Below, in pieces: positions 14,056-59,270 of a DNA stretch of 64,000 bases. Position 1 is the first letter of the stretch. Each line of letters starts with the position of its first letter. Under the pieces are notes generated by a model. That model had not been told where the DNA came from, searched no databases, and saw only the letters and a list, made by a program, of their open reading frames with translations. The DNA comes from Alphaproteobacteria bacterium. GTDB lineage: Bacteria; Pseudomonadota; Alphaproteobacteria; MPNO01; UBA830. Made by a program: the position numbers and the translations under genes. The stretch is taken from NCBI GenBank assembly GCA_964291215.2, contig OZ219791.1, positions 3,328,001 to 3,392,000 of the forward strand, in the 5' to 3' direction.

Positions 14056-15728
14056 TCTTGAGCCTATGACTGGATCGTTTCGGTATCGACATATGTTTGA
14101 GAAGGAGACCGGGCATGAACGCCCCCGCTTCCACCATCACTCGGCACGCTGCCCCTTAGCTGTGCGTCTCGACGGCGCGTCAGGCCCAGCATGAGGTCTC
14201 CATTCCCGACCAGAAGCGACAAGGCGAAGTCCAGGGTGGTCTTACGCTAAATTCTGTCTGATTTTTCAAGGCAGTACCTGGGCTTTGCGGGGTCGCGGGT
14301 TGGTGCGGGAGATTTTTTTACAGTTTTCGCTGGCTTTCTTGCACTGAAGTTGTCATGGTGCGGGGATGTCGGTTCACAAGCACATCGCATCCTGTCCGAT
14401 TCACGTCGCAGCTCCGGAAGGGTCTGTCCGAGGTTGAGGTTCGCGAAGCCTGAGGAGCGTCCGCTGTGGGATGCGTTGATGGACGACTATCTCGGGTTTC
14501 GCCGTCTGGCGGGGCTGCGCTATATTGCGTCCTTCAGGGGGCAGTGGCTGGGTCTGGCGGCGTGACGGGGCCTTCAAGTGCCGCGACCGGTGGATTGGCT
14601 GGAAGCCGGAGCAGCAGGGCTTGATCTGACAACACGCGACTGCTTGCGGCGCCGGGAACGTTTCCGAACCTTGCCTCCTTCTTTCTTGCGACGCGGCGGC
14701 TGGCCGACGATTGGCTGGAGGCCTACGGCCACCAGGTGGCGGAGACGTTCTGCGATCCGGCGCGTTTTGCGGGCACAAGGCGGCAGGCTGGTGTGCCAAG
14801 GGGTTTGCCCGCGGGCGCTACACCGACCCCCATGGTAAGGAGATTTTCGTTGTGCGGCGCGACGGCTGCTGTCGCAGGCGCTGCGGTAGCGCCGCCTGCC
14901 TCCTCGCTCCCCGGGGTTCCGAGGTGATGCGTTCGCTGCACGAAGAGTTGGCGGCGATCGAGGACTTCCGCCGCGCAGGAAGCACACGGTGTGCTCACGT
15001 TCTCGCCGAGCTTGCGAACATGAAAGGCAGCTGCGCAGTTTGCGCGGTCGCTGTCTCAGGACGAGGCCATCGGCGGAACCCGGGGACGGAGCTGCGCGAG
15101 CCGCCCTCCAAGGCGACCCTCCACTGGGCAGTCGATCGACCCCGAGGCGCTTGAGGATGTACTCGGCCGCGGGCTCGCCCGAGCGCTTGCCGCCGACGGC
15201 AAGCGCATCCGCGGCGCTAACCGCAACGGCCACCACGAGACCGTGGCTCTCACGCATCCGGCGCACCCTTCGCGCTGTTGAATTTCGACGACGGTGAGCT
15301 GGCGGCCACCTCCTCGAGCGCACCGATGTCCGCGGCAAGGTGATCACCCTCGACGCCGGCGGCGCTGATCACCCGGCGCTGCGGCGCAGACTATGTCTTC
15401 TCGGTCAAAGGCAATGCGCCCGAAACCTTCGACATCCTCGACGGCATCGACTGGGAGACAGATGGCCGCTTCAAGGAAGAGTAAGGCCCGCCTCGAGCAG
15501 CGCGTGCCGCTCAAGGGCTTGATCAACTACCCCGGCCAGATCGCCCGCATCAAGCGCTACCGCGAGCCGCTGGGAAAGAGCGCCAGCGGCGCAGCGAGCG
15601 GCAACGACTGTACCGATACATCATCACCTTATATGACTAGGTTTTGTCCCCTTGATGATGAAATCATCCACAGCAGTTGGGGGCGGGAAAATGTGGATCT
15701 GTGGGAGAGCTATGGTTGCAGAGAGATT

Positions 15729-15904
15729 CCGCTCCCCTGAGCGAACACGCACAGGGGAGCGGGGATCAAACGATCTCCGCGGAGGTTGCCGTTTTCACCT
15801 TGACAGGGCCGCGAGCGAGTGTGGTCGGCCAACCTCCCTTGACGTCCCTCGCATGGATGCTTGGGTTTGAACCCGTATCATCGTAAGGCGAGGAGCAAGG
15901 GACG
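15729..15904 (+). ncRNA. Putative IS110 bridge RNA, copy 1
   Basis: 5' hairpin CCGCTCCCCTG/CAGGGGAGCGG; target loop with TTTTCACCT (15792-15800) and CGAGCGAG (15812-15819); donor loop with CATGGATGCTT (15852-15862) and GTAAG (15883-15887). Confidence 0.75.
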
Positions 15905-16636
15905 ATGGTCAAGATAGTAGCAGGGGTCAGCCAGTCTGGACATCTGGCGCATTGTTTTGCGAACGACGCCACGGGCAAGTGGCTTCGCGGCCTCGGGGTG
16001 AGCCGGGTGGTGGGCGACAGGCCGCTATCACCGCAAGGTTCACCAGTGTCTTCATGACCGGGGCTTCGAGGTTATTCTCGTCAACCCGTTGCGGGCGCTT
16101 CGCCGAGGCGATGGGCCATCTGGCCGACCGCGTCGACGCCAAGATCGGCTGGGCGATCTTGAGCCTGTGGCTCCGCCTTCCTCAAGAGCCTGGAGGATCT
16201 CCTGGTGCCGCGCTTGTCGACGCCAAGCAGGTGGCAGATGAGGTGGATGGCGAGACCGTCACAAGGGCCTCAGCGGCCGATCTCGATGACCGCATTGCCG
16301 GCGCGGCGATCAAAGCGGTGATCGCCGGTGATCCCGAGCAGAGGTACCCTGACCTCGATCCGGTGACCGCCGCAGCCCTTCTGGATGCCCGAACTCGGCA
16401 GCGTCGGCAGGCGGCAGCCTTGATCGGGGTGGCGCCGATGGCCAACGACTACGGTGCTCGGCACATCCGTGGCGGGCGCCGAAGGCCACGCGATCTCCTG
16501 GCCGCGACCGGCACGCTTCAACGCGGACCTGGTGCGCCTCAAGACTGCCGGCAAGCAAGGTCGCGATTGTCGCCGTGATGCGCAAGCTCTGGCGAACACC
16601 TTGCTGCGACAGCAGCGTTGCCTGAAGTACCGGTGA

Positions 16637-16837
16637 GTGAGCGAAGGAGACACGGCCCTCACCCCTGCCGAGAGCGCGATCGGGACTGTCTCGACAGTCT
16701 CCCTCTACGACACGACTTGGGGAGAATGTCTGCAGATCATCGTCGAGGTCGACATCAAGGAGATCGAACCGCCTTGGGACACCTGGAACCCGGACGGTCA
16801 CGTGCCCGGGGACGGCAAGGTAGCCGCGTTCACGTGA
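16637..16837 (+). CDS. Small unknown ORF in the IS110 right region (copy 1)
   Basis: 66-aa ORF whose sequence is conserved in copy 2 (58720-58912), where it has an AAGGAGA RBS and ATG. Confidence 0.45.
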   Translation: MSEGDTALTPAESAIGTVSTVSLYDTTWGECLQIIVEVDIKEIEPPWDTWNPDGHVPGDGKVAAFT

Positions 16838-17509
16838 CCAATGGACGGCAACCCGCCGCCGGGACCACAAGCTTCATGTCGCCTCGCTCGCAGAGCAAAC
16901 CCCACACCGCTTGTGGACAACCACAGAAAACATCACCACAGACACCCGCAAAAACCTTGCCAAGAAACATGGATGCTCGCTCGATGCGCAACACGCCAGA
17001 GGAACCGCTGCGGCCGCGGGCCGTGGAAAACATGAACCACCGAGACTGCGTTTTCGGCGAAGACGCCTGCCTGACACGCCCGCAAACCGCGCCAGCCTCA
17101 ACAACATCGCGCTCGCGGTGATCTTCCGACGCGAGAGCCTCGCCGAAACACGGCGGCGGCTCGACCGCCGAGAAGCCGTCGCAGCTCTGATTCGGCCCTG
17201 AGCGCCAATGGCGTCCGGCCGATTCCCGGACGCCGCCCACAACCCGCCTACATCCCGAAAACAACCCGCCCACGCGCCGGCAACGCCGCCGGCGACGACC
17301 GCGGACGGCCCCAAAGCCAGAAAACCCGGCAGGTTGTACAACCCCCCTCCATCAGCAGTCGACAAGATCGAATGCAGCGTGAGAAAGTCCTGGCCTCCAA
17401 GACGAAGCGCTTGTCATCGGACCCTCCCGGGTGTAAACTTACCGTCTTCGATGCGACTTTACGTATCGTCGGTGATGATGGCTTTTCATGCGTCCCGGCG
17501 GCACAACCT

Positions 17510-17585
17510 GCCCAGGTAGCTCAGTTGGTAGAGCATCGCACTGAAAATGCGGGTGTCGGTGGTTCGAATCCGCCCCTGGGCACCA
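17510..17585 (+). tRNA. tRNA-Phe (GAA)
   Basis: GCCCAGG acceptor stem, D-arm AGCTCAGTTGGTAGAGC, anticodon loop CTGAAAA, GTTCGAATC T-loop, 3' CCA. Confidence 0.97.
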
Positions 17586-17661
17586 CTCTTTCCATGCCTT
17601 CGACAACCAATCCTGAAGGCGTCCGGGACTCCGCTGCGCGGGCACCGGCCTGCGCCGTTCG

Positions 17662-20043
17662 TCAACCTTCCTTGCCCGAGATCGCCTTCCAGACGGTCTC
17701 GGGTGTCAGAGGCATCGCGAGATCGGTCACGCCTGTCGGGGCGAGCGCATCAAGCGCCGCGCCGACCACGGCGGCCGGCGAGCCGATGGAACCCGATTCA
17801 CCGCACCCCTTCGCGCCGAGCGGGTTGTGGGTGCAGGGATGGGACTCGTCGAGCCTGCCTTCGAAACTCACGAGGTCGTCGGCTCGCGGCATGCAGTAAT
17901 CGAGATAGGATCCCGAAAGGAGTTGTCCCGAGCGCGGATCGTAGCTGCAGTGTTCCGTCATCGCCTGGCCGATTCCCTGCGCGAGGCCGCCATGGACCTG
18001 ACCCTCGACGATGAGGGGATTGATCACGGTTCCGATATCGTCGACCGTGAGGTAGCTCATGATCTCCATGGTGCCGGTCTCGGCATCGATCTCGATCTCG
18101 CAGAGGTGGCCGCCGTTGGAATAGGCGAAGTTGGGCGGGTCGTAGAACGCGTTCTCGTTCAGGCCCGGTTCGACCCCTGCGGGGAGGGCATGGGCGACAT
18201 TGGCGGCTGCGGCAACGCTCTGGAGCGGCAGCCGCCGGTCGGTGCCGGCGACCGTATACATCCCGTCGTCGAAAACGAGGTCTCCGGGATCGGCCTCGAG
18301 CAGATCGGCGGCAATCAACCGTCCCTTGGCGATTATCTTGTCGGCGGCGGCGGCGATCGCCGATCCGCCCACCGCGATGGAGCGCGAGCCAAAGGTGCCG
18401 GTTCCCATCTGCACGACGCCGGTATCGCCCTCGATGACCTCGACCGTGGAATAGGGCAGGCCCAGACGCTCGGCGACGATCTGGGCGTAGGTAGTCTCGT
18501 GGCCCTGCCCGTGATTGTGCGTGCCCGCGAGAATCTGCACGCTGCCGTCTCCGGCGATGCGGATCTCGGCGCTTTCGAAGAAACCGACTCGAGCGCCGAG
18601 CATGCCTGCCAGGCGTGACGGGGCGACGCCGGACGTCTCGACGAACAGGGCCAGGCCGATGCCTCGGAGCCTGCCCCTGTGCGCCGATTCCTCGCGGCGT
18701 TTGGCAAAACCCCGCCAGTTCCCGACCTTGAGAAGCGCATCCAGAATTCCAGGGAAGTCGCCGCAGTCATAGGTCGGTCCGATCGGCGTTGCATAGGGCA
18801 TGCAATCGGCTGGAATCAGGTTGCGGCGTCGGATTTCGACCCGGTCGATGCCAAGCAACCGGGCGGCCTCGTCGGCAAGGCGCTCGAGCACGTAGCAGGC
18901 TTCGGGGCGGCCAGCGCCGCGATAGGCGTCGACCGGCACCGTGTTGGTGAGCGCGGCCGTCACATCGATGCGGATGGCCGGTGTGCCGTAGATGCCGGCC
19001 AGCAGTGCAGTGTAGATCGCACCCGGAATCGCGGCGCCGAACGTCGAGACGTAGGCGCCGACATTGGCGGTGGTGACGACGTGCAGACCCAGGAACCGGC
19101 CGTCGGCATCAATGCCGAGCCTCGCCCGCGTCAGGTGGTCTCGAGCCTGTGTATCGCTGCTGAAGGCCTCCGAGCGGCTGGAAATCCAGCGTATGGGAAC
19201 ACCGAGGCGGCGTGCGGCCCAGACGAGGATTGTCTCTTCGGGATAATGCTTGCCTTTGGTTCCGAAGCCGCCGCCGACATCAGGCGCGATCACGCGGAGC
19301 TTGTGCGTCGGCAGCGACAACGCTTCGCAGACCGAGCGGCGGATCAGATGCGGGGCCTGGGTGGCATCGTGAAGAACCGTGATATCCGATGTCGGGTCGT
19401 GCGAGGCCAGACAGGCCCGTGCCTCGATCGCTCCGCAGGCGAGCCGGTTGTTGATGAGTTCAAGTTCGACCACATGGTCAGCGGTTGCGATCGCTGTTGC
19501 CGCCTTGTCCGCATCTCCCCGGCCCCAGGAGAACAGGCGGTTGCCAGCGATCTCCGGATGCAAGAGCGGCGCGCCGTCGGCGAGTGCGGTGCTTGCGTCG
19601 GTGACCGCGGGCAGGGGGCGGTATTCGACCCCTACCTCCAATGCCGCGTCCCCGGCCTGCGCCTCTGTTTCGGCGACGATCATCGCGACCGCCTCACCGA
19701 CATGGCGCACGCGGCCGCGTGCCAGTGGCCACCGTTCGGGGACGATCATCCTGGAGCCGTCAGAATCTTCCATGATCCACATGCAGGGCATCGGCAAAAT
19801 ACCCTCGTCTGCCATGTCCTCGCCGGTGAGGCAGGCAACGACACCCGGCATGCGTGCGGCTTCCTCCACATCCACGGCGACGATCTCGGCATGGCTGTGT
19901 GGCGAGCGGATGAACGCGGCATGATGCTGGTTCGGAACCACGATGTCGGAAACGAACCGTCCCCGTCCCTGCAGGAAGCGTTCGTCCTCCTTGCGGATGA
20001 GAGGCTGGCCGATTCCTTGCGAAACGGCTTTGGAATTGGTCAT
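17662..20043 (-). CDS. Xanthine dehydrogenase-family molybdopterin-binding large subunit (CoxL form II-like)
   Basis: DVGGGFGTK, AYRGAGRPE, HGQGHET, TFGSRS, GQVHGGLAQGIG and GAKGCGESG motifs. Confidence 0.9.
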   Translation of the reverse strand: MTNSKAVSQGIGQPLIRKEDERFLQGRGRFVSDIVVPNQHHAAFIRSPHSHAEIVAVDVEEAARMPGVVACLTGEDMADEGILPMPCMWIMEDSDGSRMIVPERWPLARGRVRHVGEAVAMIVAETEAQAGDAALEVGVEYRPLPAVTDASTALADGAPLLHPEIAGNRLFSWGRGDADKAATAIATADHVVELELINNRLACGAIEARACLASHDPTSDITVLHDATQAPHLIRRSVCEALSLPTHKLRVIAPDVGGGFGTKGKHYPEETILVWAARRLGVPIRWISSRSEAFSSDTQARDHLTRARLGIDADGRFLGLHVVTTANVGAYVSTFGAAIPGAIYTALLAGIYGTPAIRIDVTAALTNTVPVDAYRGAGRPEACYVLERLADEAARLLGIDRVEIRRRNLIPADCMPYATPIGPTYDCGDFPGILDALLKVGNWRGFAKRREESAHRGRLRGIGLALFVETSGVAPSRLAGMLGARVGFFESAEIRIAGDGSVQILAGTHNHGQGHETTYAQIVAERLGLPYSTVEVIEGDTGVVQMGTGTFGSRSIAVGGSAIAAAADKIIAKGRLIAADLLEADPGDLVFDDGMYTVAGTDRRLPLQSVAAAANVAHALPAGVEPGLNENAFYDPPNFAYSNGGHLCEIEIDAETGTMEIMSYLTVDDIGTVINPLIVEGQVHGGLAQGIGQAMTEHCSYDPRSGQLLSGSYLDYCMPRADDLVSFEGRLDESHPCTHNPLGAKGCGESGSIGSPAAVVGAALDALAPTGVTDLAMPLTPETVWKAISGKEG

Positions 20044-20137
20044 CGGCAGGTCCTCGTCAGGCAGCACGGCATGGGACGGCCAGTCCGGGGCGTCCTCCGG
20101 GAAGTATCCGGCGCGGCTGTGTCATCGGCAACCGGCC

Positions 20138-21325
20138 TCAACCGCGGGATTCGGCCGCAGCTGCCGAGAGTGCAAGGAGGGCCTCGTCGCTGCCCGGCGG
20201 TCCGATCAGGGAGATTCCGAGCGGCGCGCCGGCGGTTGCCAGCGGAAGGGAGATCTGGGGGAAGCCGGAGAGCCCGGCAGGACAGGTGAGGCCCATCGTA
20301 CGCACCCGGAACGCGTCGACCTCCGTCGAGCCGGCGTCGCGTCGCGGGCTGCAGGGCGCGGTCGGGATGACGAGCAGCGTCTCTCCGCGGCCCACCAGTT
20401 CGTCAAGGCGCGCGCGGGCGACATCGCGCACCGGCTGGTGTTCCTCTGCGTGATGCTCGGTCAGCGTCGCAGCGAAGGCGAAGCGTTCCTTCACGCCGGG
20501 GCCGAACGCGGGTTCGTGTTCGGTGATCCACGCGCCATGGGCCTGCCAGATCTCGAGGGCCTGGAGGTGGCGGAAGGCGTCGAACCACCGGTCAAGTCCC
20601 TCCGCGGCAATGCGGACGGTTTTCGTACGTAGGCCGAGAGCCTCGACAAGCGCTCGCGCCTCGGCTTCCGAGGCCCGGCGCTCGTCTCCGGGCAGGCGGG
20701 CGAAGGCGTCTTCCGCGACGAGCGCCGTTTGCGGAGAGATGACGCGTGCGGCCCCGTCGAGCAGAACATCGCCGACGGCGCTGAATAGCGCGGGGTCGTG
20801 CGCAAACCATCCTATGACATCAAATGAATCGGCGAGCGCCACAACGCCGCGATCGGGTACGCGGCCGTGCGTGGGGCGAATGCCGTAGATTCCCGAAAAG
20901 CTCGCGGGACAGCGGACGGAACCGCCGCAATCCGTGCCGAGCGCCAAGTCGGCAAGGCCGCCGGCGACGGCAGCGGCTGATCCCGACGATGATCCGCCGA
21001 TCGAATGTTGCGGTGCGGCCGGGTTCACCGGCGCTCCGTAATGGATGTTGTTGCCGGCGAGGCTGTAGCACATCTCGTCGCACACGGTTTTGCCGACGAG
21101 CGAAGCCCCGGCGTCGAGAAGGAGCTTCACCGCTGTGGCGTGGGCCGCTGCCGGTGGATGGGTCGCCAGCCAGATGGGCTGGCCGTTGCCGGTCTTGCGG
21201 CCGGCGACATCGAACACGTCTTTTGCCGCAAAGGTGGCGCCCGAAAGCGCGCCGCTGCCCGTCGCAGGTTCGCTTACCGCCGGGCCGGCGAGAAAGGCGC
21301 CGAAATCGTCAGTCATTGGCCGCAT
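20138..21325 (-). CDS. Amidase signature family protein
   Basis: KDVFDVAG, GKT, GGSSSGSAAAV and GTDCGGSVRCPAS. Confidence 0.9.
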   Translation of the reverse strand: MRPMTDDFGAFLAGPAVSEPATGSGALSGATFAAKDVFDVAGRKTGNGQPIWLATHPPAAAHATAVKLLLDAGASLVGKTVCDEMCYSLAGNNIHYGAPVNPAAPQHSIGGSSSGSAAAVAGGLADLALGTDCGGSVRCPASFSGIYGIRPTHGRVPDRGVVALADSFDVIGWFAHDPALFSAVGDVLLDGAARVISPQTALVAEDAFARLPGDERRASEAEARALVEALGLRTKTVRIAAEGLDRWFDAFRHLQALEIWQAHGAWITEHEPAFGPGVKERFAFAATLTEHHAEEHQPVRDVARARLDELVGRGETLLVIPTAPCSPRRDAGSTEVDAFRVRTMGLTCPAGLSGFPQISLPLATAGAPLGISLIGPPGSDEALLALSAAAAESRG

Positions 21326-21408
21326 GCTCCTGGATTTCTGCGCCCGGGCGCGGCTTGGCTGCCTGCCGGTGTCGCGGCGCTCCGGTTACTGCTGCTCTTG
21401 GCGACGCC

Positions 21409-22401
21409 TCACAGGCCGAGTTCCCATCGCAAATTCCCCTCGTACATTGCCTCGCGGTCGGCGTCCGTGCAGCGGAGATTCTCGATAACTCCGATAGTCG
21501 AGCGGATGAGGCGTCCGCCGCCTTCCTCGTCATAGGGGCAGTCGGTGGCGAAGAAGGAATGATCGGCGCCAAAGAAATCGAGGCCGGCCTGGCTCGCCGC
21601 CTGGGCGCCGAACATTGCCGTATCCCCGAAATAGTCCCTGAAATACTCCACCAGAGGTTTCTTGAGCACATCCCGGAAAGAGCGGCCCTCGCCCATGTCG
21701 GCGTTGCGGCTTTCCCAGCTCGGCGTGAAGCGGCCTTCGGCATGGGGAACATAGGCGCCCCAGTGATGCGCGATGATCCTGAGGCCAGGGATCTCATCGA
21801 ACATTCCTGAACACGCGATCCGCGCCATTGCTGCACTCGTCTCGTAGGCCCATCCGAATCCCCAGAAGATCTCGTGAAACGAGCGGTCCTCGGTGAGGTA
21901 ATCGGGATGTGTCGCCGGGCGGGTCGGGTGAAGCCAGATCACCTTTCTGCGCTCCGTTATCTTGGCAAAGATGTCTCGGAATTCCGGCTGGTCGAGCGCC
22001 CGGTTGTTCACGTTGGTGAAGAGCTGGAAGCCGACCGCGCCCAGTTCGTCGATCGTGCGGTCGATCTCGGCAAGGGCCGCGTCGGTGTTGTTCATCGGCA
22101 GCGAGGCGATGAACCACGGCATGCGGTCGGCGCGCTCGCGGCAGATGCGGGCCATCCCGTCATTTGCTACGCGGGTGAGGCCGGGGCTGTCATCGGGGCC
22201 GGCGATCGAATCGATTGGAGGCTGGGACATCGAGATGATCTGCTGGTAGTCGTCGAATTCCTCGAGCATCCGCTCGCGCGCGTCCATGTCGTATATCGTC
22301 CGGATCGCCTTCCAGCGTTTGACGGCGGCATCGGGCATCAGGCCCTCGACCTTCTCGAAGAACTCGGGCGGAAAGACGTGGTTGAAGACATCGATTTTCA
22401 T
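21409..22401 (-). CDS. Amidohydrolase_2 family protein (decarboxylase/hydratase-like)
   Basis: IDVFNHVFP, WLHP, IIAHHWG and FATDCPYD metal-binding motifs. Confidence 0.85.
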   Translation of the reverse strand: MKIDVFNHVFPPEFFEKVEGLMPDAAVKRWKAIRTIYDMDARERMLEEFDDYQQIISMSQPPIDSIAGPDDSPGLTRVANDGMARICRERADRMPWFIASLPMNNTDAALAEIDRTIDELGAVGFQLFTNVNNRALDQPEFRDIFAKITERRKVIWLHPTRPATHPDYLTEDRSFHEIFWGFGWAYETSAAMARIACSGMFDEIPGLRIIAHHWGAYVPHAEGRFTPSWESRNADMGEGRSFRDVLKKPLVEYFRDYFGDTAMFGAQAASQAGLDFFGADHSFFATDCPYDEEGGGRLIRSTIGVIENLRCTDADREAMYEGNLRWELGL

Positions 22402-22495
22402 CTGGATCGCTCCTTGCCCGGGCGGCGCCCGGCGGGACTGAAGGGTGGGCGATGTTGCCGCGGCGCCGTGCGGCGGCACGGACAGGACGGGAAGC

Positions 22496-23113
22496 CTAGT
22501 ACGGGCCCCAGGCGCGTCCGGTGGCCGGGCGTGCCCCGATCGTGTCATGCCAGCGGCGGACATTGGCGAACTCCTCCAGCCCGATGCCGTTGACACCATG
22601 GAGGTGGACGTCCGGATAGCAGGTGATGTCGGCGATCGAGAAATCGCCTGCGAGATATTCGCTTTCCCCGAGACGGCGGTCGAGCACGCCGAGGAGGTCG
22701 CGTAGCGTCGCCTCGTAATGCCTCTTCGCGGCCGGAACATCCTCGCCGAACCTGAGGAAGAAGAGGCCGTATTGCTGGGCGAGCGTAGTGAAAGTTGCCG
22801 AACCGAAGATGAACCACTGGTCGACCATGATCCTGCGCACCGGATCCCCGGGATAGAGGCCCGGTGCCGCCTTCTCCGCGAGGTACTTCAGGATGGCGCC
22901 CGATTCGCAAAGCGTGACACGCTGGCCGCCCGGCCCGTCGTCATCGACAATGGCGGGAATCTTGTGGGCGGGACTGATCTTCATGAAGTCGGGATCGTGC
23001 TGTTCCCGCTTCGTCAGGTCGATCGGACGGATGGCATATTCCAGTCCGCTTTCCTCAACCATCTGGCGCGCCTTGTAGCCGTTGTCCGTAGTCCAGAAAT
23101 AAAGTGTGAGCAT
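22496..23113 (-). CDS. Glutathione S-transferase (YfcG/YghU-like)
   Basis: WTTDNGYK, KIPAIVD, ESGAILKYLAEK, FSIADI. Confidence 0.88.
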   Translation of the reverse strand: MLTLYFWTTDNGYKARQMVEESGLEYAIRPIDLTKREQHDPDFMKISPAHKIPAIVDDDGPGGQRVTLCESGAILKYLAEKAAPGLYPGDPVRRIMVDQWFIFGSATFTTLAQQYGLFFLRFGEDVPAAKRHYEATLRDLLGVLDRRLGESEYLAGDFSIADITCYPDVHLHGVNGIGLEEFANVRRWHDTIGARPATGRAWGPY

Positions 23114-23413
23114 TCATTCCTCCCTGTGCCGCCGCAGGTATTCCGTTGCTCCGCTGCTTGGCGGACCGTTCCTGCCGCGGCTGGTAGAGTTTCCCAGAAT
23201 GGGCCGGTTGCGTAAAGGTGCAAAACTCGCACAGCCCGACGTGCCGCGGAGAATCGGCTGCATCCGGTGGTGTCCTGCGGCAAGCCTCGTCGCCGGCGCA
23301 TGGGGGTCGCCGACAGGGTCGTTGTATGCGGAGGAGACGGCTGTTATAGAGCGGCGAGTGCAAATTCGATCCGGCCCGGTCGGCATCGGGCGCGTGAGGT
23401 CCCGGAAAGGCTC

Positions 23414-49370: not shown

Positions 49371-49373
49371 CTG

Positions 49374-50380
49374 ATGGCGGATTGTGCGCCGCCTGCCAGC
49401 CCGCGGACCGTGCGGCCGCGCCTCTGCAGCCCACCGGCGAATATAGAGAGGCTCGCCGAACTGGTTGCGCAAGCCGCGAACCCGATGGTGCTCACTGAAG
49501 CCGCGGGGCGCGAGACCGAAACCTGCGAGGCGTTGGTCGCCTTGGCCGAACGCGCGACGCTGCCCGTAGTCGAACGTTCAACGATGTTGTTCCCCTATTT
49601 TCCGAAGAATCACCCGCTGCATCAGGGTCCGGATCTCGACGCGTTGGGGAACGACGCCGATCTCGTGATCCTGATGCGCACCAGGGTGCCATGGTATCCG
49701 CCGAGCGCCGCTCCGCCCGGGGCAGTGATCGTTGTCTTCGACGAAAAGCCGCATCGGGATTCGATGGTCTATCAGAGCCTCCAGACGGACATATATCCCG
49801 AGGACAATGTCGCGCAGACGCTGTGCGATCTTGCCGATGCTCTCGACCGGGTCGGCCTCGACGACGCGGCGGTCGCGTATCGTCGGTCGCGCCTTGCGCG
49901 GATCCACGCGGACCATGGGGCGGCCCGGATCTAGGCAGCCACCAGTAAGGAGCCGATCCGCCAGGTCGGGCTCGGGGGCAGGGTATCGGGTTGTCGCTCG
50001 GGATCCGGCTCGCGAGGCCGGACGTGCCTGTTGTGACGCTGATCGGCGACGGCGCCTTCCTTATATAACCCCGTTCTCCAGAGTCTCGGCGCGGAGCGGG
50101 ACTACGGGCTCCCGACGATTTCCGTGATCTTCAACAACCGCAGGTACGCATTGATGCAGAATATGCATCGGAAACTCTATCCGGACGGCCCAGCCGTCGG
50201 CGCCGACACCTATTACGGCACCCACATCAATGCACCGGATTTCGTCAAAATTGCCGAGGCGTTCGGTGCCCATGGCGAACAGGTCGGCGATCCCGCCATG
50301 CTTGACGACGCGATCAGGCGCGGCTTGGAAGCTGCCAATGGAGGCCGGTCGGCCATCTTCGACGTCTGGTTTCCTAGAAT
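49374..50380 (+). pseudogene. Thiamine-pyrophosphate-binding enzyme fragments
   Basis: Central domain AANPMVLTEAAGR; TPP motif LIGDGAFLYNP..IFNN; N-terminus missing, internal stop and deletion. Confidence 0.7.
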
Positions 50381-50542
50381 GTCTCAAATCCCGCCCGGAA
50401 CCCGCCAGGCAGACGGCGCACAACCGATGGTCTATCCAGTGATCAGGCGCTATGCTCGGAGTCTCCGTGTGGATGTGCATGGTCTTCCGTGAATACAGCC
50501 ATGCGAATCGAAACCGTTTCAGAACCAGTTCCGGAGGAAGGG

Positions 50543-51319
50543 ATGCCGCGCCGCCTGATTGACATTTCCGTTCCCCTCGAGGTCGGTATCCGGTCCGATC
50601 CCGACTTCATGCTGCCGAAGATTGTCTACCACGCGCATGATGAAACGGCGAAGGATATCTGCGCCCTATTTCCGGGCCTCGAACCCGAACAGCTTCCCGA
50701 CGGCAAGGGGTGGGCTATCGAGGACATTGAGCTCACGACACATAACGGCACCCATGTCGACGCGCCGTGGCACTATCATCCGACGATGGATGGCGGCGAC
50801 CGTGCGATTACCATCGATGAGATTCCGCTCGAATGGTGCTACCAGCCCGGCGTCAAGTTCGATTTCCGGCATTTCGATGACGGCTACCTAGTGACGCCCG
50901 CCGACATGGAAAGGGAGCTTGGGCGCATCGGCCACGATCTGCAGCCGCTCAATATCGTCATCGTAAACACGTCTGCCGGGGAGCGTTACGGGAAGGACGA
51001 TTACCTCGAGAAAGGGTGCGGATTTGGCCGTGAAGCGACGCTGTGGCTGACCGAACGCGGCGTGCGGGTCGTCGGCACTGATGCGTGGACTTGGGACGCT
51101 CCGTTTCCGCAGACGCACGAAAGATGGAAGGAAACGCGCGATCCCTCGATCATCTGGGAGGGCCACAAGGCCGGTCGCGACCGGGGGTATTGCCAGATCG
51201 AGAAAATGGGCAATCTCGACAGGTTGCCGCCGACCGGTTTCGATGTAATCTGTTTTCCGACCAAGATCAAGGGCGCGTCGGGAGGCTGGACCCGCGCCGT
51301 TGCCGTGGTAGAGGAATAG
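50543..51319 (+). CDS. Cyclase family protein (kynurenine formamidase-like)
   Basis: LIDISVPL, THNGTHVDAPWH, GTDAWTWD, QIEKM.NL, GASGGWTRAVA. Confidence 0.9.
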   Translation: MPRRLIDISVPLEVGIRSDPDFMLPKIVYHAHDETAKDICALFPGLEPEQLPDGKGWAIEDIELTTHNGTHVDAPWHYHPTMDGGDRAITIDEIPLEWCYQPGVKFDFRHFDDGYLVTPADMERELGRIGHDLQPLNIVIVNTSAGERYGKDDYLEKGCGFGREATLWLTERGVRVVGTDAWTWDAPFPQTHERWKETRDPSIIWEGHKAGRDRGYCQIEKMGNLDRLPPTGFDVICFPTKIKGASGGWTRAVAVVEE

Positions 51320-51449
51320 CGCACGGCAGGCGCTGCGGTTGTTTCAAGTTCGCCCGCGGTGTCGCGGGTGCACCCGATATATTGGTTGCGGATCTGGCTG
51401 GCGATGACAACCTGTATTCTGGCATAGTGCCGGGTTTCGGGAGGCGGAG

Positions 51450-52220
51450 ATGAGCGCATTGTTGGCGGAGCATCGGGCGGCGGTTACGGGAGGCGGTTCC
51501 GGAATCGGCCGCGCGATCGCGATGGGATATGCGGAAGAGGGTGCAGAAGTGACCATTCTCGACGCGAATCCCGAGGCGGCAACACGGGTCTGTGACGAGA
51601 TCGCGGCAGCCGGTGGCCAGGCGCGCTCGTTCGAACTTGATGTACGCGACCGCAACGCATGCGTCGCCATCGCCGGGAAGATTGCCAGCGAGTTCGGTGA
51701 TATTACCGTCCTGGTGAACAATGCCGGAATCAACCGGCGTACCCCGTTTGCCGGCGATGAAGACGCGGTTCGGAAAGACTGGGATGACATCATCTCGGTC
51801 AACCTGGACGGTATGTTTAATGTCACGCATGCTTTCGTTGACCAGCTTCGGGCGACTGGGGGACGCGTGGTTAACATCGCTTCGGTCCAGTCCTTCGTCC
51901 ACATGCGCACCCCCAACTCGCTCGCCTACACGACATCCAAACACGGCGTGCTGGGATTCACACGGGCCCTAGCCGCAGAACTGGGCAGGGACGGGGTGCG
52001 GGTGAATGCGATCGGGCCGGGGCTGGTGGAAACGCCGCTGAACGCGGAAGCGCGGGCCAGGAATCCCGATCTGGTGAGGATGATCCTTGAACACACCCCC
52101 CTGCGGCGCACCGGCCAGCCCGAGGACATCGTCGGGCCAGCGGTCTTCCTTGCTTCGGATCTGTCGCGATACGTCACCGGCGACATCATCATGGCTGACG
52201 GCGGCTACAAGACGATCTGA
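51450..52220 (+). CDS. SDR family oxidoreductase
   Basis: TGGGSGIG, NNAG, YTTSK, VNAIGPG, DGG. Confidence 0.92.
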   Translation: MSALLAEHRAAVTGGGSGIGRAIAMGYAEEGAEVTILDANPEAATRVCDEIAAAGGQARSFELDVRDRNACVAIAGKIASEFGDITVLVNNAGINRRTPFAGDEDAVRKDWDDIISVNLDGMFNVTHAFVDQLRATGGRVVNIASVQSFVHMRTPNSLAYTTSKHGVLGFTRALAAELGRDGVRVNAIGPGLVETPLNAEARARNPDLVRMILEHTPLRRTGQPEDIVGPAVFLASDLSRYVTGDIIMADGGYKTI

Positions 52221-52232
52221 GAACTTGCCGAG

Positions 52233-53207
52233 ATGACGTCCTGCAGGCTGAGCATTGCGCTGGAGCGCTACGACAGGCACGTTCCGTTCTTCATGGGTCT
52301 GGTTGCGACGCCACCGGACATCGAGCTGGAGGCGCTAGAGGTCGGCATGGTGCCGCCCCGGCGTGACGGTGTTGATCGCCATCGACGCATGCTGGCCGAC
52401 TGCGAGTTCGATATCGCCGAGGTCTCCCTGGCTTCCTACATCATGGCGCGGCGCCGAGGTGTTCCGCTGACAGCGGTTCCGTGCTTTCCGAGACGCCTGT
52501 TCAGCCAGAACCACATCTTCGTCAACGCGGACTCGGGCATCGCGAGGCCAACCGACCTGATCGGCCGCAGGGTCGCCATATGGGCCTTTCAGGTGACCAT
52601 GTCGGTGCTTGCCAAGGGCGACCTCCAGACGGAGTACGGGGTGCCGTGGCGCGAGGTGACGTGGCTAACCGAGCGGGACGAGGAAGTTGCTTGGACCGGG
52701 ACTGGCGGCAACATCGAGCGGATACTGGCGGGCCAGAACGGCGTCGAGATGGTGCTGACAGGCGCGGCGGATGCCTACATCAATCCGCATCCGCCGGAAG
52801 AAATCTTCGCCGATGGCCGGGTGAGGCGGCTGTTTGCCGACCCGAAGGGAGAATGCCTGCGCTACTGGCGGAAGCACGGCTACTATCCGATCATGCACTT
52901 GCTGGCGATCAGGGAGGGGACTGTTGCGGATTGCCCGGATCTGCCGCGGCAGCTGGTCGAGATGTGGGACAATGCGCGCGAGCAGGCGTGCGAGTTCTAT
53001 GTCGACCATGATTACACAGTGCTGCCCTTCGGAAGATACGCCTTCGAGAGTGACCGGAATGCATTCGAGGGCGAGTTGTGGCGGTCCGGGCTGGCCGCGA
53101 ACCGCGACAATCTCGACAGGTTCATCGGCTACATGGTCGACCAAGAGCTACTTGACGCACCGATCTCCCCGGAGTCGCTATTTCACGAGAGCGTCCTTGA
53201 CACGTAG
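52233..53207 (+). CDS. 4,5-dihydroxyphthalate decarboxylase-like protein (periplasmic-binding fold)
   Basis: ERYDR, EFDIAEVSLASY, PCFPRRLF, YPIMHLLAIR, G..AN...L..F..Y...Q. Confidence 0.7.
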   Translation: MTSCRLSIALERYDRHVPFFMGLVATPPDIELEALEVGMVPPRRDGVDRHRRMLADCEFDIAEVSLASYIMARRRGVPLTAVPCFPRRLFSQNHIFVNADSGIARPTDLIGRRVAIWAFQVTMSVLAKGDLQTEYGVPWREVTWLTERDEEVAWTGTGGNIERILAGQNGVEMVLTGAADAYINPHPPEEIFADGRVRRLFADPKGECLRYWRKHGYYPIMHLLAIREGTVADCPDLPRQLVEMWDNAREQACEFYVDHDYTVLPFGRYAFESDRNAFEGELWRSGLAANRDNLDRFIGYMVDQELLDAPISPESLFHESVLDT

Positions 53208-53472
53208 CGCCGGGAGCGCCTGCGTCGTTGCTGGATCCCGGGCGCTCAGGCTGCGGCGCTGCCTGTCCGTTGCCGGTTCCGGAGCAGGACATGCAGTGAG
53301 GGGCTTCGAACGGCAAACGGGACGGCGCAATTTCCTTGAGCCGGGGCTGCGGAGTCCGGCCGCTTGACTGGGGCCTTGCGCCGTTCATATTGCTGCCGTC
53401 GCTGGGAATTGTCGGCGCACGCCGCCCGATCCCGGATCGAAGAGACGGTAGGAGACAGGAAGGAAACCGACA

Positions 53473-54411
53473 ATGGCCAAGGACGGAAAAGTCATCATCA
53501 CCTGTGCGGTCACGGGATCGATCCATACGCCGACCATGTCGCCGCACCTGCCGATCACGCCGGATGAAATCGCGACAGACGCCGTCGCCGCGGCCGAGGC
53601 CGGGGCCTCGATCTTGCATCTTCACGCCAGGGATCCAAATGACGGTCGGCCGACGCCGGATCCGGCAGTGTTTATGGAATTCCTGCCGCGCATCAAGCAG
53701 CAGACGGATGCCGTGGTCAATATCACCACCGGCGGCGGTCACGGAATGACCCTCGAAGAACGTTGCGCGGCGGCCCTGCATGCCAGCCCCGAGATGACGT
53801 CGCTCAATATGGGCTCGATGAATTTCGGGCTGTTTCCCATCCTTGAAAAGAACATGGCTTGGAAGCATGACTGGGAGCCCGCCTATCTGGAGATGACACG
53901 GGATTTCATATTTAGAAATACTTTCAAAGATATAGAATGGGTTCTCAAAGAATTGGGAGAAAATCACGGGGTGCGCTTCGAGTATGAATGCTACGACATG
54001 GGCCACCTCTACAATCTGGCGCACTTCCTTGATCGCGGAATGATCCAGCCGCCTGTCTTTGTCCAGACTATCTTCGGCATTCTGGGTGGCATAGGCGCGG
54101 ACATCGAGAATCTCGCCCACATGCGGCGGATCGCCAACAAGCTGTTTGGCGAGGAAAACTACGAATGGTCGATCCTCGCCGCCGGCCGCCACCAGATGAA
54201 CTTTGTGACGACGGGTGCGATCATGGGCGGGAATATCCGCGTGGGGCTGGAGGACTCGCTCTATCTGGGCAAGGGACAACTGGCGGAGAGCAATGCCGAC
54301 CAGGTCTCCAAGATTCGCCGCATCATCGAGGACCTCTCGCTCGAAGTTGCGACCCCCACCGAGGCTCGCGAACGCCTGCGGCTGAAGGGCGGTGACCTCG
54401 TCAAGTTCTGA
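53473..54411 (+). CDS. Beta-keto acid cleavage enzyme (BKACE/DUF849)
   Basis: KVIITCAVTGSIHTPTMSP, ILHLHAR, SLNMGSMNF, ECYD.GH, RVGLED. Confidence 0.92.
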   Translation: MAKDGKVIITCAVTGSIHTPTMSPHLPITPDEIATDAVAAAEAGASILHLHARDPNDGRPTPDPAVFMEFLPRIKQQTDAVVNITTGGGHGMTLEERCAAALHASPEMTSLNMGSMNFGLFPILEKNMAWKHDWEPAYLEMTRDFIFRNTFKDIEWVLKELGENHGVRFEYECYDMGHLYNLAHFLDRGMIQPPVFVQTIFGILGGIGADIENLAHMRRIANKLFGEENYEWSILAAGRHQMNFVTTGAIMGGNIRVGLEDSLYLGKGQLAESNADQVSKIRRIIEDLSLEVATPTEARERLRLKGGDLVKF

Positions 54412-54826
54412 CCGGGAAAGCCAGCGAGGGGCTGTTCGGCTTGCCATTGACAGAGAGCGGACAGCCTGCAGACTATGAGGACGCCCGTTGCAGGTTCTCC
54501 CCGGATTTCGCAGTGGGCGGCACCGGCATCCTCGCTGATCTGAAACGGTGTTTCCGGTTTCCCATGTCGGTCTTTGCGTTGTTCCGTGCGCGAGGATGCC
54601 GAGCCGGTTCCACGGGAGAGTAAGCTGCAACTATCTGGCGGATGCACGCGATTCCGGAAGCTGTTTTCCTGCAGTTCGAGCAGCGCGACCAGGAGCGTGT
54701 CCGCCCGGTTGCGATGGTTCGCCACGACCTTTCGATGTCCGGCCCCTCCTGTCGGGTTTGCGCTATGGTCCCGTCCTCCGGACGCGGGCAATTACGTCGG
54801 AAGGTGTCCGAATCCACCCGCCCGGA

Positions 54827-55129
54827 TCAGCTCTCGCGTATTGAGAAGGCGTGATTTTTGCGTGCGGCGTCGAGCCCTGTCTCCGTGCGGGCCTCGATGC
54901 GGTAGAGCGGCGTGTCCGGCTCGACCCGGGCCCCGCGGCGCACCAGCAGATCCAGTCCTGCGCTCTTATCCGAGGGAGCGCCAGCAGCGTGGGCGATGCC
55001 GGCGAGCCTGAAACAGTCGCTGGAGTCGACAACTCCATGGGTTTCCGCGGGAATCTCGCACACGTGGGACGCGTTCGGCACGTCTTCCGGCGGCGGCCCC
55101 TGCGCCGCTGCCATTTGTGCAAACGTTTC
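54827..55129 (-). pseudogene. Thymidine/AMP phosphorylase C-terminal fragment truncated by IS630
   Basis: AQG, D..RLAGIA..AGAP.DK.AGLDL...G..VE...PLYRI. Confidence 0.65.
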
Positions 55130-55786
55130 CTAGCAGGGTGACATTATTGGATTGAAGGGTATAGTGACTTCAGTTTCGTCCGAGCATCCTTCGTCGTGAA
55201 ACGCCAGTCGACGGTGACATCGGCCGCATTGCACCGTTCCACCCATGCTGCCGTCTCCCGCCGCATGGTGTCTCTGTCGGGAATGCGTCGCCGAAGGCAC
55301 TGCTGCGACAACGCACCGATCTCGGCCATGTTGAGCCAGCTTCCGTGCTTCGGCGTGTAGCGAAACTCGAACCGCTTTCGCACCCGCCTCCTCGGGCTCG
55401 AAGGCTTCATACAGCGACTGTGTGTGTTCAGATTGTCCAGCACGATCTTCCTGTCGGGGAAATGGTCGTCGGCAAGCTCCCGGATGAAGTGCGCCCGGTC
55501 CCGCGGCGGTCGGTGACTTTCACCATGCGCCAGTTCTCGTTGGGCGCGAAGGCCATGAAGAGGTTGGCCGTGCCGTTGCACTCATATTCATAGTCGGCCA
55601 CCTCCGGCTGACCGGGGGATGCGGGTTTCCTTCGTCTGCTACCGGCTGGTCTCGCACCAGCACCTCGTCCCCGGCAAAATCCCGCTGATAAATGTCAAGC
55701 ACGTCCGCCGCCACGAACTGTGCGCTCCGGTGCGGTGGAATGCAGCACCAGTACTGCTTCAGCCACGGCTTGGTCTCTTTTTTTAG
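55130..55786 (-). mobile_element. IS630-family element 3' part
   Basis: Same transposase as 10500-11106 (DNLNTH, YTPKHGSWLNMAEI); ends at CTAG 55130-55133. Confidence 0.82.
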
Positions 55787-57468
55787 CCCGAAGTTCCAGA
55801 GATGATCAGACCTAAGTATCTGATAGAAATGACATTCGATACATTTCAGCGGTCTCGGTACACTATGGCTTCACGCCCAGGAGCTTGAATGCCCTTCTCT
55901 GGAGCGGCGTGGGCCGTGTGGTGACCGGGAAGGGTTCGGCGCCCGCAAGGCGGGGCGCCACGGTGTTGCGGGTCGCAAGATCGCCGATGAGGGTGCGGAA
56001 GCTGTGCCCCCTCCGGGCGTCCTCTTCGTTGTCGCCTTGGCCCGAGCGCTCGCCGAGACTTCTGCCGGCGCCACGACGGACGGCCGCCTTCGGCATCCTC
56101 GTCGTCGAACAGCATGGGCTTCAGTCGCATGTGCCATGTAGTAGGCGAGCATGCACAGGAAGATGTGGGCCCGGGGCGGTGGTAGACGGGACGGACCTTC
56201 AGGTCCTTGAGGCTGCGGAAGGCCCGTTCCACGGAGCTCAGCCGCTTGTAGGCGCGCGGGACCGTCGAGCTCGCTCTGCGGCAGGCGGACCACGTAGAGG
56301 AGCCTCGGCAGCGATCGCAGCCTCATCGCGCCCATAGGTGAAGACACCGTCATCGTCGATGGACCACGTGAAGTGCTTCGCCATCCTGCCGATGACCTTC
56401 CGCTCCCCGATCTTCCCGGCGCTTGTCGCGCCGTGTCGCTGCGGCAATCGGTGCGAGCCTCGGTGGCCTCGAGCAGTTCCTGGCGCTTGCGAGCCCGATC
56501 CAGCAGGGGGTTGCGGCAGAGGCGTTCGCCGGGATACACATCGCTGGTGATCTCCACCAGGTCTCTCTCGTCGAAGAGCGACATCGTCGCCGGCCTCCAC
56601 CAGTGAACGGATGCCCCTCAAGGCGCTGGCCCGCAGGCTTGACCTCCTCGCGGGCCTCGGTCCCCCACCACCTTCGCAAAGGAGAACCGCTCCCGCAGCG
56701 TGGCGATCTGTGAGGACACCGTGGCCGGGTGTTGCCGGGGAACACTCGCACCGACACCCGTCCCGGTCGCACAGAAGGCCAAACTCGATCTGCAGCTTGC
56801 CCTTCTTGCCATCCCGGGAATGACCCCGTTGGGCCAAAGGGCATGCTCTCCCCTCCATCCACACGGAAGTCAGGAGCACCAAGCAGCCCTCTTCGAGGTG
56901 CCGCCAGGGGATCCTCTCCTGACGTTCCAGGAGCCGTAGAGGGCATTCTCGTCCAACTCCGCATCTCACCCAAGGTGCTGACCGCTGTCGCCAGCCCCCT
57001 GGCCAGCTTCGAGGCGGGCTCAAGGATGCGTGCCACGATCATGGCGAGAACCTGATCGCGCTCGGGAGAAGGCTTCGGGTCGATCCGCCGGTCCAGTTTC
57101 TTCAGGGTTCCCAGCACCGCGGCGACATGGGGAAGAGAGCGGACGAGGCGTCGTTGAGACCTGCGGTTCCTCCCTTGAGCAGAATGCGCAATCCCTCGAT
57201 GAGAGCGGGCTTGGAAAGGTTGGCGAGGGTGCGCTTCTTGACCGTTCCGGCTTCGCGACAGGACTCGCGGAGCAGGATGGCGGGCGGGGACGAGCGGTTG
57301 GGGATGGATTCGATATACATGGCTACTGAATATGGGCGGAAAATCCATGGATGTCAAGCATCTAACACAATATTACATGGGTACAATATGACGCACGAAA
57401 AATCCGATAAACCACGCTGCATCAATGACTTGACGTGCATTTCAACCGGAATTTTTTGGAACTTCGGG
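55787..57468 (-). mobile_element. IS1634-family element, transposase frameshifted
   Basis: TIR CCCGAAGTTCCA at both ends with TTAG flanks; MYIESIPNRSSPPAILLRES..RTLANLS, GHSRDGK, VERAFRSLK, AHIFLCMLAY. Confidence 0.88.
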
Positions 57469-57719
57469 TTAGCGCCGCGGATGCGCTTGCCGTCGGCGGC
57501 AAGCGCTCGGGCGAGCCGGCGCCCGCGGCCGAGCACATCCTCGAGCGCCTCGGGGTCGATCGACTGCCCGGTGGAGGGTCGCCTTGGAGGGCGGCTCGCG
57601 CAGCTCCGTCCTTATATGACTAGGTTTTGTCCCCTTGATGATGAAATCATCCACAGCAGTTGGGGGCGGGAAAATGTGGATAACCTCGACTATGGGAGAG
57701 CTATGGTTGCAAAGAGATT

Positions 57720-57901
57720 CCGCTCCCCTGTGTGAGAACGTACAGGGGAGCGGGGATCAAACGATCTCCGCGGAGGTTGCCGTTCCGCCCTTGGCTTTAT
57801 AGAGCCGTTCCCGAGCGTGGCAACCTCCTTTGGCGTCCCTTGCGTCCTGAATGGATGCTTGGGTTTGAACCGTATCATCATAAGGCGAGGAACAAGGGAC
57901 G
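57720..57901 (+). ncRNA. Putative IS110 bridge RNA, copy 2
   Basis: Target loop closed by GGAGGTTGCC/GGCAACCTCC containing TTCCGCCCT (57783-57791) and CCCGAG (57810-57815); donor loop closed by GTCCCTTG/CAAGGGAC containing ATGGATGCTT (57851-57860) and ATAAG (57880-57884). Confidence 0.78.
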
Positions 57902-58719
57902 ATGGTTACGGTAGTAGCAGGGATTGATGTCAGCAAGGCCAGTCTGGACATCTGGGGCGTCGTTTTACGAACGACGCCACGGGCACGTGGCTTCGCAGCC
58001 TCGAGGTAACCCGTGTGGTGATGGAGGCGACAGGCCGCTATCACCGCAAGGTTCACCAGTGTCTTCATGACCGGGGCTTCGAGGTTGTCCCGGTCAACCC
58101 GTTGAGGGCTTCGCCGAGGCTTTGGGCCATCTGGCCAACCGCGTTGACGCCAAGATCGGCACGGTGCGATCTCGAGCCTGTGGCTCCTCAGGAAGCCTTC
58201 CTCAACTGCCTGAGGGATCTCCTGGTGCCGCGCTTGTCGACGCCAAGCAGGTGGCAGATGAGGTGGATGGCGAAGGCGAGACCGTCACAAGGGCTTCGGC
58301 GGCCGATCTCGATGACCGCATTGCCGGTGCGGCGATCAAAGCGGTGATCGCCGGTGATCCCGAGCAGAGGTACCCTGACCTCGATCCCCGGTCCAGTGAC
58401 CGCCGCAGCCCTTCTTTGTTGGATGCCCGAACTCGGCAGTCTCGGCCGTCGGCAGGCGGCAGCCTTGATCGGCGTGGCGCCGATGGCCAACGACCACGGT
58501 GCTCGGCATATCCGAGGCGGGCGCCGGAGGCCACGTGATCTCCTGGCCGCGACCTCGGCAGCACGTTTCAACGCGGATCTGGTGCGCCACAAGACCGCCG
58601 GCAAGGCCCACAAAGTCGCCATTGTCGTCGTGATGCGCAAGCTCTGGCGAACACCTTGCTGCGACAGCAGCGTTGCTGGTCGACCGAAGCACCGGTGAGT
58701 GAGCGAAGGAGACACCCTC

Positions 58720-58912
58720 ATGGCCCTCACCCCTGCCGAGAGCGCGATCGGGACTGTATCGACAGTCTCCCTACTACGACACGACTTGGGGAGAATGTCT
58801 GCAGATCATCGTCGAGGTCGACATCAAGGAGATCGAACCGCCTTGGGACACCTGGAACCCGGACGGTCACGTTACCATGCCCGGGGGCGGCAAGGTAGCC
58901 GCGTTCACGTGA
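58720..58912 (+). CDS. Small unknown ORF in the IS110 right region (copy 2; 1-nt frameshift near 58774)
   Basis: AAGGAGA RBS, ATG at 58720; sequence conserved with 16637-16837. Confidence 0.45.
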
Positions 58913-59270
58913 CCAATGGACGGCAACCCGCCGCCGGGACCACAAGCTTCATGTCGCCTCGCTCGCAGGGCAAATCCCACACCGCTTGTGGACAACCACA
59001 GAAAACATCACCACAGACACCCGCAAAAACCTTGCCAAGAAACATGGATGCTCGGACAGACCCTTCCGGAGCTGCGATGTGAATCGGACAGGATGCGATG
59101 TGCTTGTGAACCGACATCCCCGCACCATGACAACTTCAGTGCAGGAAAGCCAGCGAAAACTGTAAAAAAATCTCCCGCACCAACCCGCGACCCCGCAAAG
59201 CCCAGGTACTGTCTTGAAAAATCAGACAGAATTTAGCGTAAGATCATCCTGGATTTTTGCCTGGTCCACC

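Follow-up and report, generated by a model that had tools for sequence, protein, structure and literature searches.

Predicted bridge RNAs with different target guides among decayed IS110-group copies of one alphaproteobacterial genome

Introduction

In IS621, which together with ISCro4 offers the closest described counterpart of the element treated here, the circle junction forms a promoter driving a bridge RNA, the loops of which pair with target and donor DNA around a CT core (PMC11208160, PMC11208158). As far as the accessible text of the reports goes, excision needs donor matches only and copies the element rather than cutting it out (10.64898/2026.08.31.748434), a similar copy-out is described in 10.1101/2025.10.25.684509, and in PMC13626964 excision proceeds via a complex using both loops. 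Here we describe an IS110-group element in a 64,000-nt stretch of DNA (the window) from an Alphaproteobacteria bacterium (assembly GCA_964291215.2, contig OZ219791.1, positions 3,328,001 to 3,392,000), which carries two copies of it, copy 1 at 15630–16977 and copy 2 at 57613–59052. An earlier reading of this DNA, made from the letters alone (the sequence-only reading), had taken the two copies for siblings with a common donor guide and a switched target guide, each matching its own insertion site, and had suggested a guide-diversification mechanism.

The architecture of the element is that of IS621; the mechanism is known, whereas the member is new and provides an unusually clear natural record of retargeting. 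Features shared with IS621 and ISCro4, as these are described in the available parts of PMC11208160, PMC11208158 and PMC13626964, include a DEDD plus Tnp recombinase, a long left end, a CT core, a junction promoter with a 17-nt spacer, target and donor loops with the left guide read on the bottom strand and the right guide on the top strand, and a discontinuous right donor guide. Unlike in those descriptions, the right target guide here reads five nucleotides beyond the core and the left one only four, the targets lie mostly inside other insertion sequences, and all copies in the present genome are broken. Durrant et al. (PMC11208160) documented guide variation across orthologues pooled from many genomes, whereas here 5–15 guide pairs occur per genome on backbones that are 90–99% identical. 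According to the text available to us, PMC11187229 considered multiple versions of IS621, more than 95% identical and with different targets, and did not find them; the present family shows such near-identical versions. The pair ISEc11/ISXne4 of the IS1111 group, discussed in the same paper, is alike in that the target-reading part of the RNA changed naturally on a conserved scaffold, but there the transposases are 72% identical and the RNA lies downstream. Half-match and copy-out models (10.64898/2026.08.31.748434, 10.1101/2025.10.25.684509, 10.64898/2026.08.14.744561) would explain the mobility of mismatched copies and one-sided junctions, although in the parts accessible they concern reaction mechanism and element growth, not target-guide evolution. 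We found no account of guide repertoires within a genome in the literature (including PMC10849738, 10.64898/2026.10.21.760802 and 10.64898/2026.08.14.744561), subscription journals and supplements aside; Supplementary Data 1–2 of PMC11208160 list natural guide–target pairs and could include members of this family.

Results

Target guides covary with flanking DNA

The genome containing the window (G000; 6.15 Mb in two contigs, 99.3% complete by marker genes) holds 64 left ends of the element that begin close to the terminus, as well as 71 right-end matches. In what follows, n numbers denote element copies in G000, other G numbers related genomes and L numbers loci in these relatives; guide positions are called read if they belong to the four left (positions 4–7) and five right ones, nine in all. 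At these positions, 10 left and 8 right guide alleles are distinguished in the 62 readable left ends, where they form 15 pairs; the largest families are A (18 copies), C (12), B (9) and two B/C hybrids (6 and 4). Among the 37 copies with both junctions, 16 match their flanks at 9/9 positions and 26 do so within one mismatch. Guide–flank matches exceed expectation both on the left (142 observed vs 106.8 expected, 41 copies) and on the right (255 vs 203.0, 57 copies), and none of 20,000 shufflings of flanks among copies reaches the observed match (permutation p = 5e-5). The covariation also holds on 23 left and 23 right distinct pairs, and within lineage b, one of two backbone lineages (A and b), taken alone (p = 0.004 and 0.007). 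There is strong support for a bridge RNA of the IS110/IS621 type whose target guide takes different forms within one genome. The family of naturally different target guides anticipated by the sequence-only reading is borne out, as is the covariation across further copies by which it was to be checked. Its statement that each copy matches its own site holds for the 16 exact and, within one mismatch, the 26 of 37 copies; the rest, including copy 2, are scrambled by recombination.

Families B, C and D are separated by single-base steps on backbones 1–3% apart. Guides of a family also occur unaltered at sites that they do not match, namely in 44/88 left and 38/81 right distinct guide–site pairs. 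The GATCG right guide is carried by n34 at a non-matching site and by n1 at a matching one, which makes n34 a possible source copy for the guide of n1.

The same covariation is seen in relatives. Flank shuffling within genomes gives 186 observed matches vs 134.4 for the left guide (53 distinct pairs) and 171 vs 127.6 for the right guide (39 distinct pairs), p = 5e-5; these statistics leave out 12 of the 20 G042 regions, which enter the guide-pair counts. Match rates are 0.83–0.94 at the four left and 0.82–0.92 at the five right positions, against 0.15, 0.09 and 0.28 at the first three left-guide bases (53 distinct pairs). Sampling comprised 20 regions of G042, 23 of G046, 14 of G045 and the best 30 loci each of G041 and G047, so that the guide counts are lower bounds: at least 6 pairs in 19 copies of G041, 9 in 18 of G042, 5 in 15 of G045, 7 in 25 of G046 and 8 in 15 of G047. 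These five genomes hold repertoires as G000 does.

Copies 1 and 2 of the window

Both elements proposed by the sequence-only reading hold at their coordinates, with CT at both ends of each. Copy 1 (15630–16977, plus strand; 1348 bp including the right-hand CT core) belongs to lineage b, carries guide D and has a broken recombinase. It is inserted between the left target TCATCAC with the CT core (15621–15629, plus strand) and the right target CGCTCG (16978–16983, plus strand). Its predicted bridge RNA region (15719–15903, plus strand) consists of two 5′ hairpins, a target loop and a donor loop, with deletion damage to the scaffold amounting to 6 nt in the inner target-loop hairpin and 7 nt in the donor-loop stem. 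The left target guide TTTTCACCT (15792–15800, plus strand; read at positions 4–7 plus CT) and the right target guide GCGAGCGAG (15811–15819, plus strand; five nucleotides plus AG) agree with the flanks at 9/9 programmable positions, and an empty target of this guide is present in the window (6311–6325, minus strand; 0.02 expected by chance). That copy 1 matches its own site was therefore read correctly, but the supposed 7/9 match on the left counted mismatches at unread positions, as the left guide shows no tendency to follow the target at its first three bases. The donor guides are ATGGATGCT on the left (15853–15861, plus strand) and CATCGTAAG on the right (15879–15887, plus strand). A frameshifted remnant of the DEDD recombinase (15905–16625, plus strand, end approximate) retains DxxD as its sole motif. 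The left ends of copies 1 and 2 fold with z = −4.2 and −4.5, respectively.

Copy 2 (57613–59052, plus strand; 1440 bp) belongs to lineage A. In its predicted bridge RNA region (57710–57900, plus strand) the target-loop stem is shorter in both arms, with pairing preserved. The left target guide is TTCCGCCCT (57783–57791, plus strand), instead of TTCCGTCCT in the other 18 copies of the guide family, and the right one is GTTCCCGAG (57807–57815, plus strand); the donor loop (57851–57884, plus strand) contains the left guide at 57851–57859 and the right guide CATCATAAG at 57876–57884. In the recombinase remnant (57902–58680, plus strand) the GIDVS and EATG motifs are present, and DxxD and the region of the catalytic serine are deleted.

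The guides of copy 2 match its own flanks at only 3/4 left and 3/5 right positions, contrary to what had been proposed. Its left flank equals the empty target used by lineage A (6932–6944, plus strand), whereas its right flank CGGACAG (59053–59059, plus strand) equals a different empty target, that of guide family C (7713–7726, plus strand). These two sites are about 780 bp apart within the same host element, an empty copy of which lies at 5845–7925 (minus strand) and comprises a DruA-like gene, remnants of DDE_Tnp_1-associated and DDE_Tnp_1 transposase, and three target sites. The genome has no empty site with the flank junction of copy 2. The 6/6 right-guide match that had been credited to copy 2 belongs to the site used by its sibling G000:C1:2048494, which sits in the 6932-type site with both proper flanks and whose left guide TTCCGTCCT fits that site one base better. 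Because the flanks come from different sites and the sibling fits better, copy 2 is a recombinant of insertions at host sites 6940 and 7721 with a decayed guide base. Nor do the two copies represent one backbone with a switched guide: with 92% column identity (81 substitutions at 1323 aligned positions), they fall into two lineages, which are separated by differences at 75/1303 consensus positions (6%) and told apart by 66 diagnostic sites.

Scaffold, donor loop and junction promoter

Upstream of the recombinase gene, the non-coding left end contains two internal-loop hairpins. In an alignment of 21 sequences, from which the structure was also drawn by hand, 93% of cells are paired and 10/32 pairs show two-sided changes, exceeding all slid controls. 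No Rfam family matches the element. The left donor guide ATGGATGCT is common to both window copies and equals the right end of the element, as the sequence-only reading had it, and the donor guide is nearly fixed in G000. The right donor guide does pair with the left end, though over a longer stretch than had been claimed (CAT-c-ATAAG with CT-TAT-ATG, one RNA base being bulged). This half covaries with the left end in G000: all four copies with the left end TGTATG carry ATCACAAG, which is also found in three copies lacking that end. In relatives, different left ends go with different right donor guides.

Joining of the ends would create a putative promoter, TTGCCA-17-TATGAC, in 33 of 37 copies, with related hexamers in the other four; candidate hexamers of this kind occur in 45/51 rows of relatives, most of which have TTGA(C/T/A)T-17-TATGTT. 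No promoter-like site was found in the integrated left end of copy 1. The joint of a circle junction was not found in contigs of public runs, which drop rare forms.

In 61 of 62 copies the target-loop stem has lost 6 nt from its 5′ arm (compare copy 2, 57772–57829, and n8, G000:C1:1320147), and 36 copies add a 5-nt deletion in the 3′ arm which restores perfect pairing. The paired deletions hint that the shortened RNAs were still under selection, or that the second deletion was driven by structure.

Recombinase, classification and relatives

None of the 57 full-length copies has the catalytic motifs in one frame, individual motifs being preserved in 2, 7, 8 and 17 of them, and tblastn retrieved no intact homologue from G000. 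An intact 315-aa homologue, L002, is encoded in a genome of the same genus (G001:C47) and passes the cut-offs for both DEDD_Tnp_IS110 (PF01548) and Transposase_20 (PF02371); both window copies align to it, and the remnants in copy 2 give sub-threshold hits to the two families (E about 0.001). L002 matches IS621 (PDB 8wt6) with E = 4e-27, and its D9, E51, D93, D96 and S233 align with the catalytic residues of IS621. A 2-nt core is evident from the CT at both ends and from the joined flanks, which with one CT equal empty sites; terminal inverted repeats and a longer duplication are absent. Judged by these features, the copies in G000 are pseudogenes of a member of the IS110 (IS621) group. Assignment to the IS1111 group was considered and rejected: the guide region is upstream of the gene and the ends are TATATG.../...ATGGATG, rather than a guide RNA in the right end with 7–17 bp sub-terminal inverted repeats.

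A search with L002 yielded 79 loci, mostly in metagenome-assembled genomes of alphaproteobacteria (Paracoccaceae-type), and the left ends of these relatives share the two-loop scaffold. Among 40 relatives of the host genome, one of the same genus gave a strong DNA match, and none is a strain close enough to polarise the changes. The junction of L002 is one-sided, its right flank matching at seven bases and its left flank, which adjoins a hydrolase-like ORF, not matching. The right end is about 370 bp long in the G000 element (about 16630–16890 and 58690–58960 in the window) compared to about 200 bp in relatives; the extra segment has no Pfam hit, and several older copies hold a different version of it.

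Targets lie mostly in other multicopy elements

Most targets are located inside other multicopy elements that have 8–34 empty copies, and a few are single. The DruA-like (PF14236) host together with its DDE part, with about 34 empty copies and a further copy at 14227–17401 in the window, contains three separate insertion places, each struck by a different guide family. Translated, sites B and D read M-T-S-V and I-T-S-L, apparently at corresponding codons of two related transposase genes, which we take to be ISAs1-like from a PF13808 hit. Mismatches are frequent in empty host copies: at the main A site, one of 13 empty host copies is perfect compared to 14/14 occupied right junctions; perfect empty copies number 7/21 for the B site, 1/9 for the GATC site and 19/34 for the rare guide D. 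The GATCG guide has 63 perfect sites in repeats, and a perfect target for it lies inside the element's own recombinase gene (16350–16360 in the window); the 63 are probably mostly this self site. In copy n17 (G000:C1:2111783-2112912) the guide is a B/C hybrid, and the site that it matches and occupies is single and lies in a gene that is, by motif, presumably another IS110-type transposase.

In two host copies (G000:C1:2031741 and C1:2039107), a different sequence, common to both, begins one base past the D site and interrupts the host. Nearly this position may be used by another element or by a deletion.

Rate of guide change and half-guide shuffling

In G000, column diversity is 0.27 in the nine read guide columns and 0.05 in the 1291 others (p = 6e-5). 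Two intact loci of G041, L095 and L102, differ at 8/9 guide positions and at 14/177 four-fold sites, and the intact or near-intact G042 pair L155/L156 differs at 6/9 and 19/172, respectively. In G047, a one-base guide variant resides in the host allele that matches it, both host alleles being common among empty copies (6 and 5).

Half-guides are also mixed. Lineage b contains all four B/C half-guide combinations (12/9/6/4), and in G042 seven of the nine possible pairings between its three left and its three right multi-base alleles occur, for the most part at non-matching sites. The G041 loci L104 and L108 share site and backbone (2/164 four-fold sites), L104 having the right guide of another family. 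The idea that the element's own recombinase cuts the DNA encoding the guide, and so turns the stretch between the half-guides into a hot spot, is not supported: over the 24 nt separating them r2 is 0.20 and D′ 0.48, compared to means of 0.14 and 0.61 for 14 pairs 16–30 nt apart, and hairpin markers co-travel with the right guide inconsistently. Since linkage in G000 decays within 20–30 nt everywhere in the element, the guide interval being no exception, the shuffling looks like a by-product of general conversion. We saw no dedicated guide diversifier in these data; the mechanism suggested by the sequence-only reading finds no support, given reshuffling that is no commoner than between equidistant markers and family guides that persist at mismatched sites.

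Short deletions of 5–8 nt pervade repeats of G000 although marker genes are intact, and host elements show the same deletions. The element copies hold 78 distinct deletion alleles of 4–9 nt, 14–38 per copy, many being common to more than 40 of 57 copies; microhomology of at least three bases accompanies 22 of the 78, with about 7% expected. This pattern suggests short-patch conversion biased towards deletions. We found no account in the literature of short deletions in repeats of sponge symbionts.

Other features in the window

The window further contains a match to group II intron domains D1–D4 (RF02005; 2859–3061), a tRNA gene (17510–17582) and, to the right of the host fragment of copy 2, an AbiEi antitoxin-like gene (PF09407; 59332–60240). 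The sponge-metagenome run X5 shares only short pieces, and we therefore claim no habitat from it.

Discussion

We consider it probable that these decayed IS110-group copies combine a near-fixed donor guide with a fast-changing target guide, that point mutation followed by reinsertion at a matching site is the likely source of new guides, and that conversion likely reshuffles half-guides. New guides would arise by point mutation of nearly free guide positions; a mutated copy would circularise, and the circle would express its own guide and reinsert at a site matching it. A target-guide mutant would remain mobile because copy-out, according to published work on IS621 and CazIS110, can run on donor recognition alone and the circle supplies the guide, so that the guide may drift at little cost. 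Variants aimed at an abundant, harmless and unoccupied repeat would multiply into a guide family, and gene conversion would then blur the backbones, leaving some guides at non-matching sites.

Several observations weigh against this reading. The bridge RNA, the circles and the activity are predictions from DNA, and the two-loop excision complex, as described in the accessible part of PMC13626964, would make a mismatch between guide and flank costlier than assumed. For each of guides A, B and C, 6–10 perfect 11-mers in unique DNA stay unoccupied, and any 'saturation' of targets therefore applies to repeats only; moreover, a single insertion may be the ancestor of all copies at a given host site, so the occupancy counts are not independent. 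Only 7/15 pairwise rate tests give P < 0.05, the guide excess vanishes in the two between-genome pairs, and both faster guide change and homogenisation of backbones by conversion could produce such an excess. No source copy was seen for guide D or for the G047 variant. The candidate cases in which a shuffled half-guide combination may have given rise to a matched family of its own, n17 and the 2 × 2 set of G045/G046, also fit stepwise mutation. Finally, three other related genomes have two guide pairs each (in 8, 13 and 6 copies), one dominant and one stray.

Part of this evidence could be accommodated if the guide families were old lineages that entered the genome separately, with their guides preset, and whose backbones were later homogenised, with little retargeting having taken place here. 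Differences between lineages A and b are indeed densest near the guide (14/137 at positions 150–300) and sparsest at the far end (6/363 beyond 1050), linkage is lost within about 20–30 nt, some families also show block-wise differences at unread loop positions, and G045 and G046 have three identical guide pairs on backbones 7–9% apart. We nevertheless regard this history as unlikely: one or two bases separate B, C, D and the GATCG variant, which are aimed at different sites of the genome's own repeats, the codons hit by B and D in two related transposase genes appear homologous, and the one-base variant of G047 follows two alleles of a host element present there. Reads from near-identical repeats can become mixed in long-read metagenome assemblies, and the contigs of public runs are too short to phase a whole element, so one might ask whether the mosaic of guides and deletions is an artefact of assembly or polishing. 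This is extremely improbable given that alternative guide alleles and short indels are present in contigs of three public runs (all belonging to one study, and one of them perhaps the source), that the empty-site joint 15627–16976 (the empty D site) occurs in contigs of two of the public runs, that the genome is 99.3% complete, and that the covariation recurs in five other assemblies.

A guide might also be rewritten after insertion with the flanking target as template, an off-target copy thereby gaining a matching guide. Three copies at one site, n37, n25 and n61 (copy 1 of the window), have 2, 1 and 0 nested mismatches and are among each other's nearest neighbours; at a second site n1 differs from n4 by the one base completing the match; and the G047 loci L059 and L064, which share a 46-nt insertion and the host site, each have a right guide matching their own host allele. 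Such rewriting is very unlikely, considering the family guides left unchanged at sites that they do not match (44/88 left and 38/81 right distinct pairs), the several lone guide changes that worsen the match (n3, n62, L028, L184, L188) and the first three left-guide bases, which mismatch the flank, contrary to block copying. In the trio at the D site, the copy with a complete match lies on the shortest branch (distances 13, 17 and 23) and the mismatching alleles are the genome's commonest, a pattern that fits conversion away from a matched founder. Conversion from a matched founder, along with independent insertion of a mutated derivative, explains the rewriting-like cases without new chemistry. 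More broadly, it seems quite doubtful that guides evolve actively, be it by flank-templated rewriting or by a productive swapping of half-guides that builds specificities combinatorially; if true, this would give bridge RNAs a step of adaptation resembling the acquisition of spacers, as part of a chase with the other insertion sequences that the family parasitises.

How bridge RNAs gain new targets in nature is the question on which this element bears: the published work, in the parts accessible, shows that guides differ between orthologues, not how they change. With mutation and reinsertion as the probable route, the family catches retargeting within single genomes, through one-base steps, siblings that match or mismatch their sites, a given target in both empty and occupied alleles, and intact relatives. 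It is also a natural read-out of the guide positions that are read, four on the left and five on the right, and its relatives offer a set of predicted-intact recombinases already paired with many guides.

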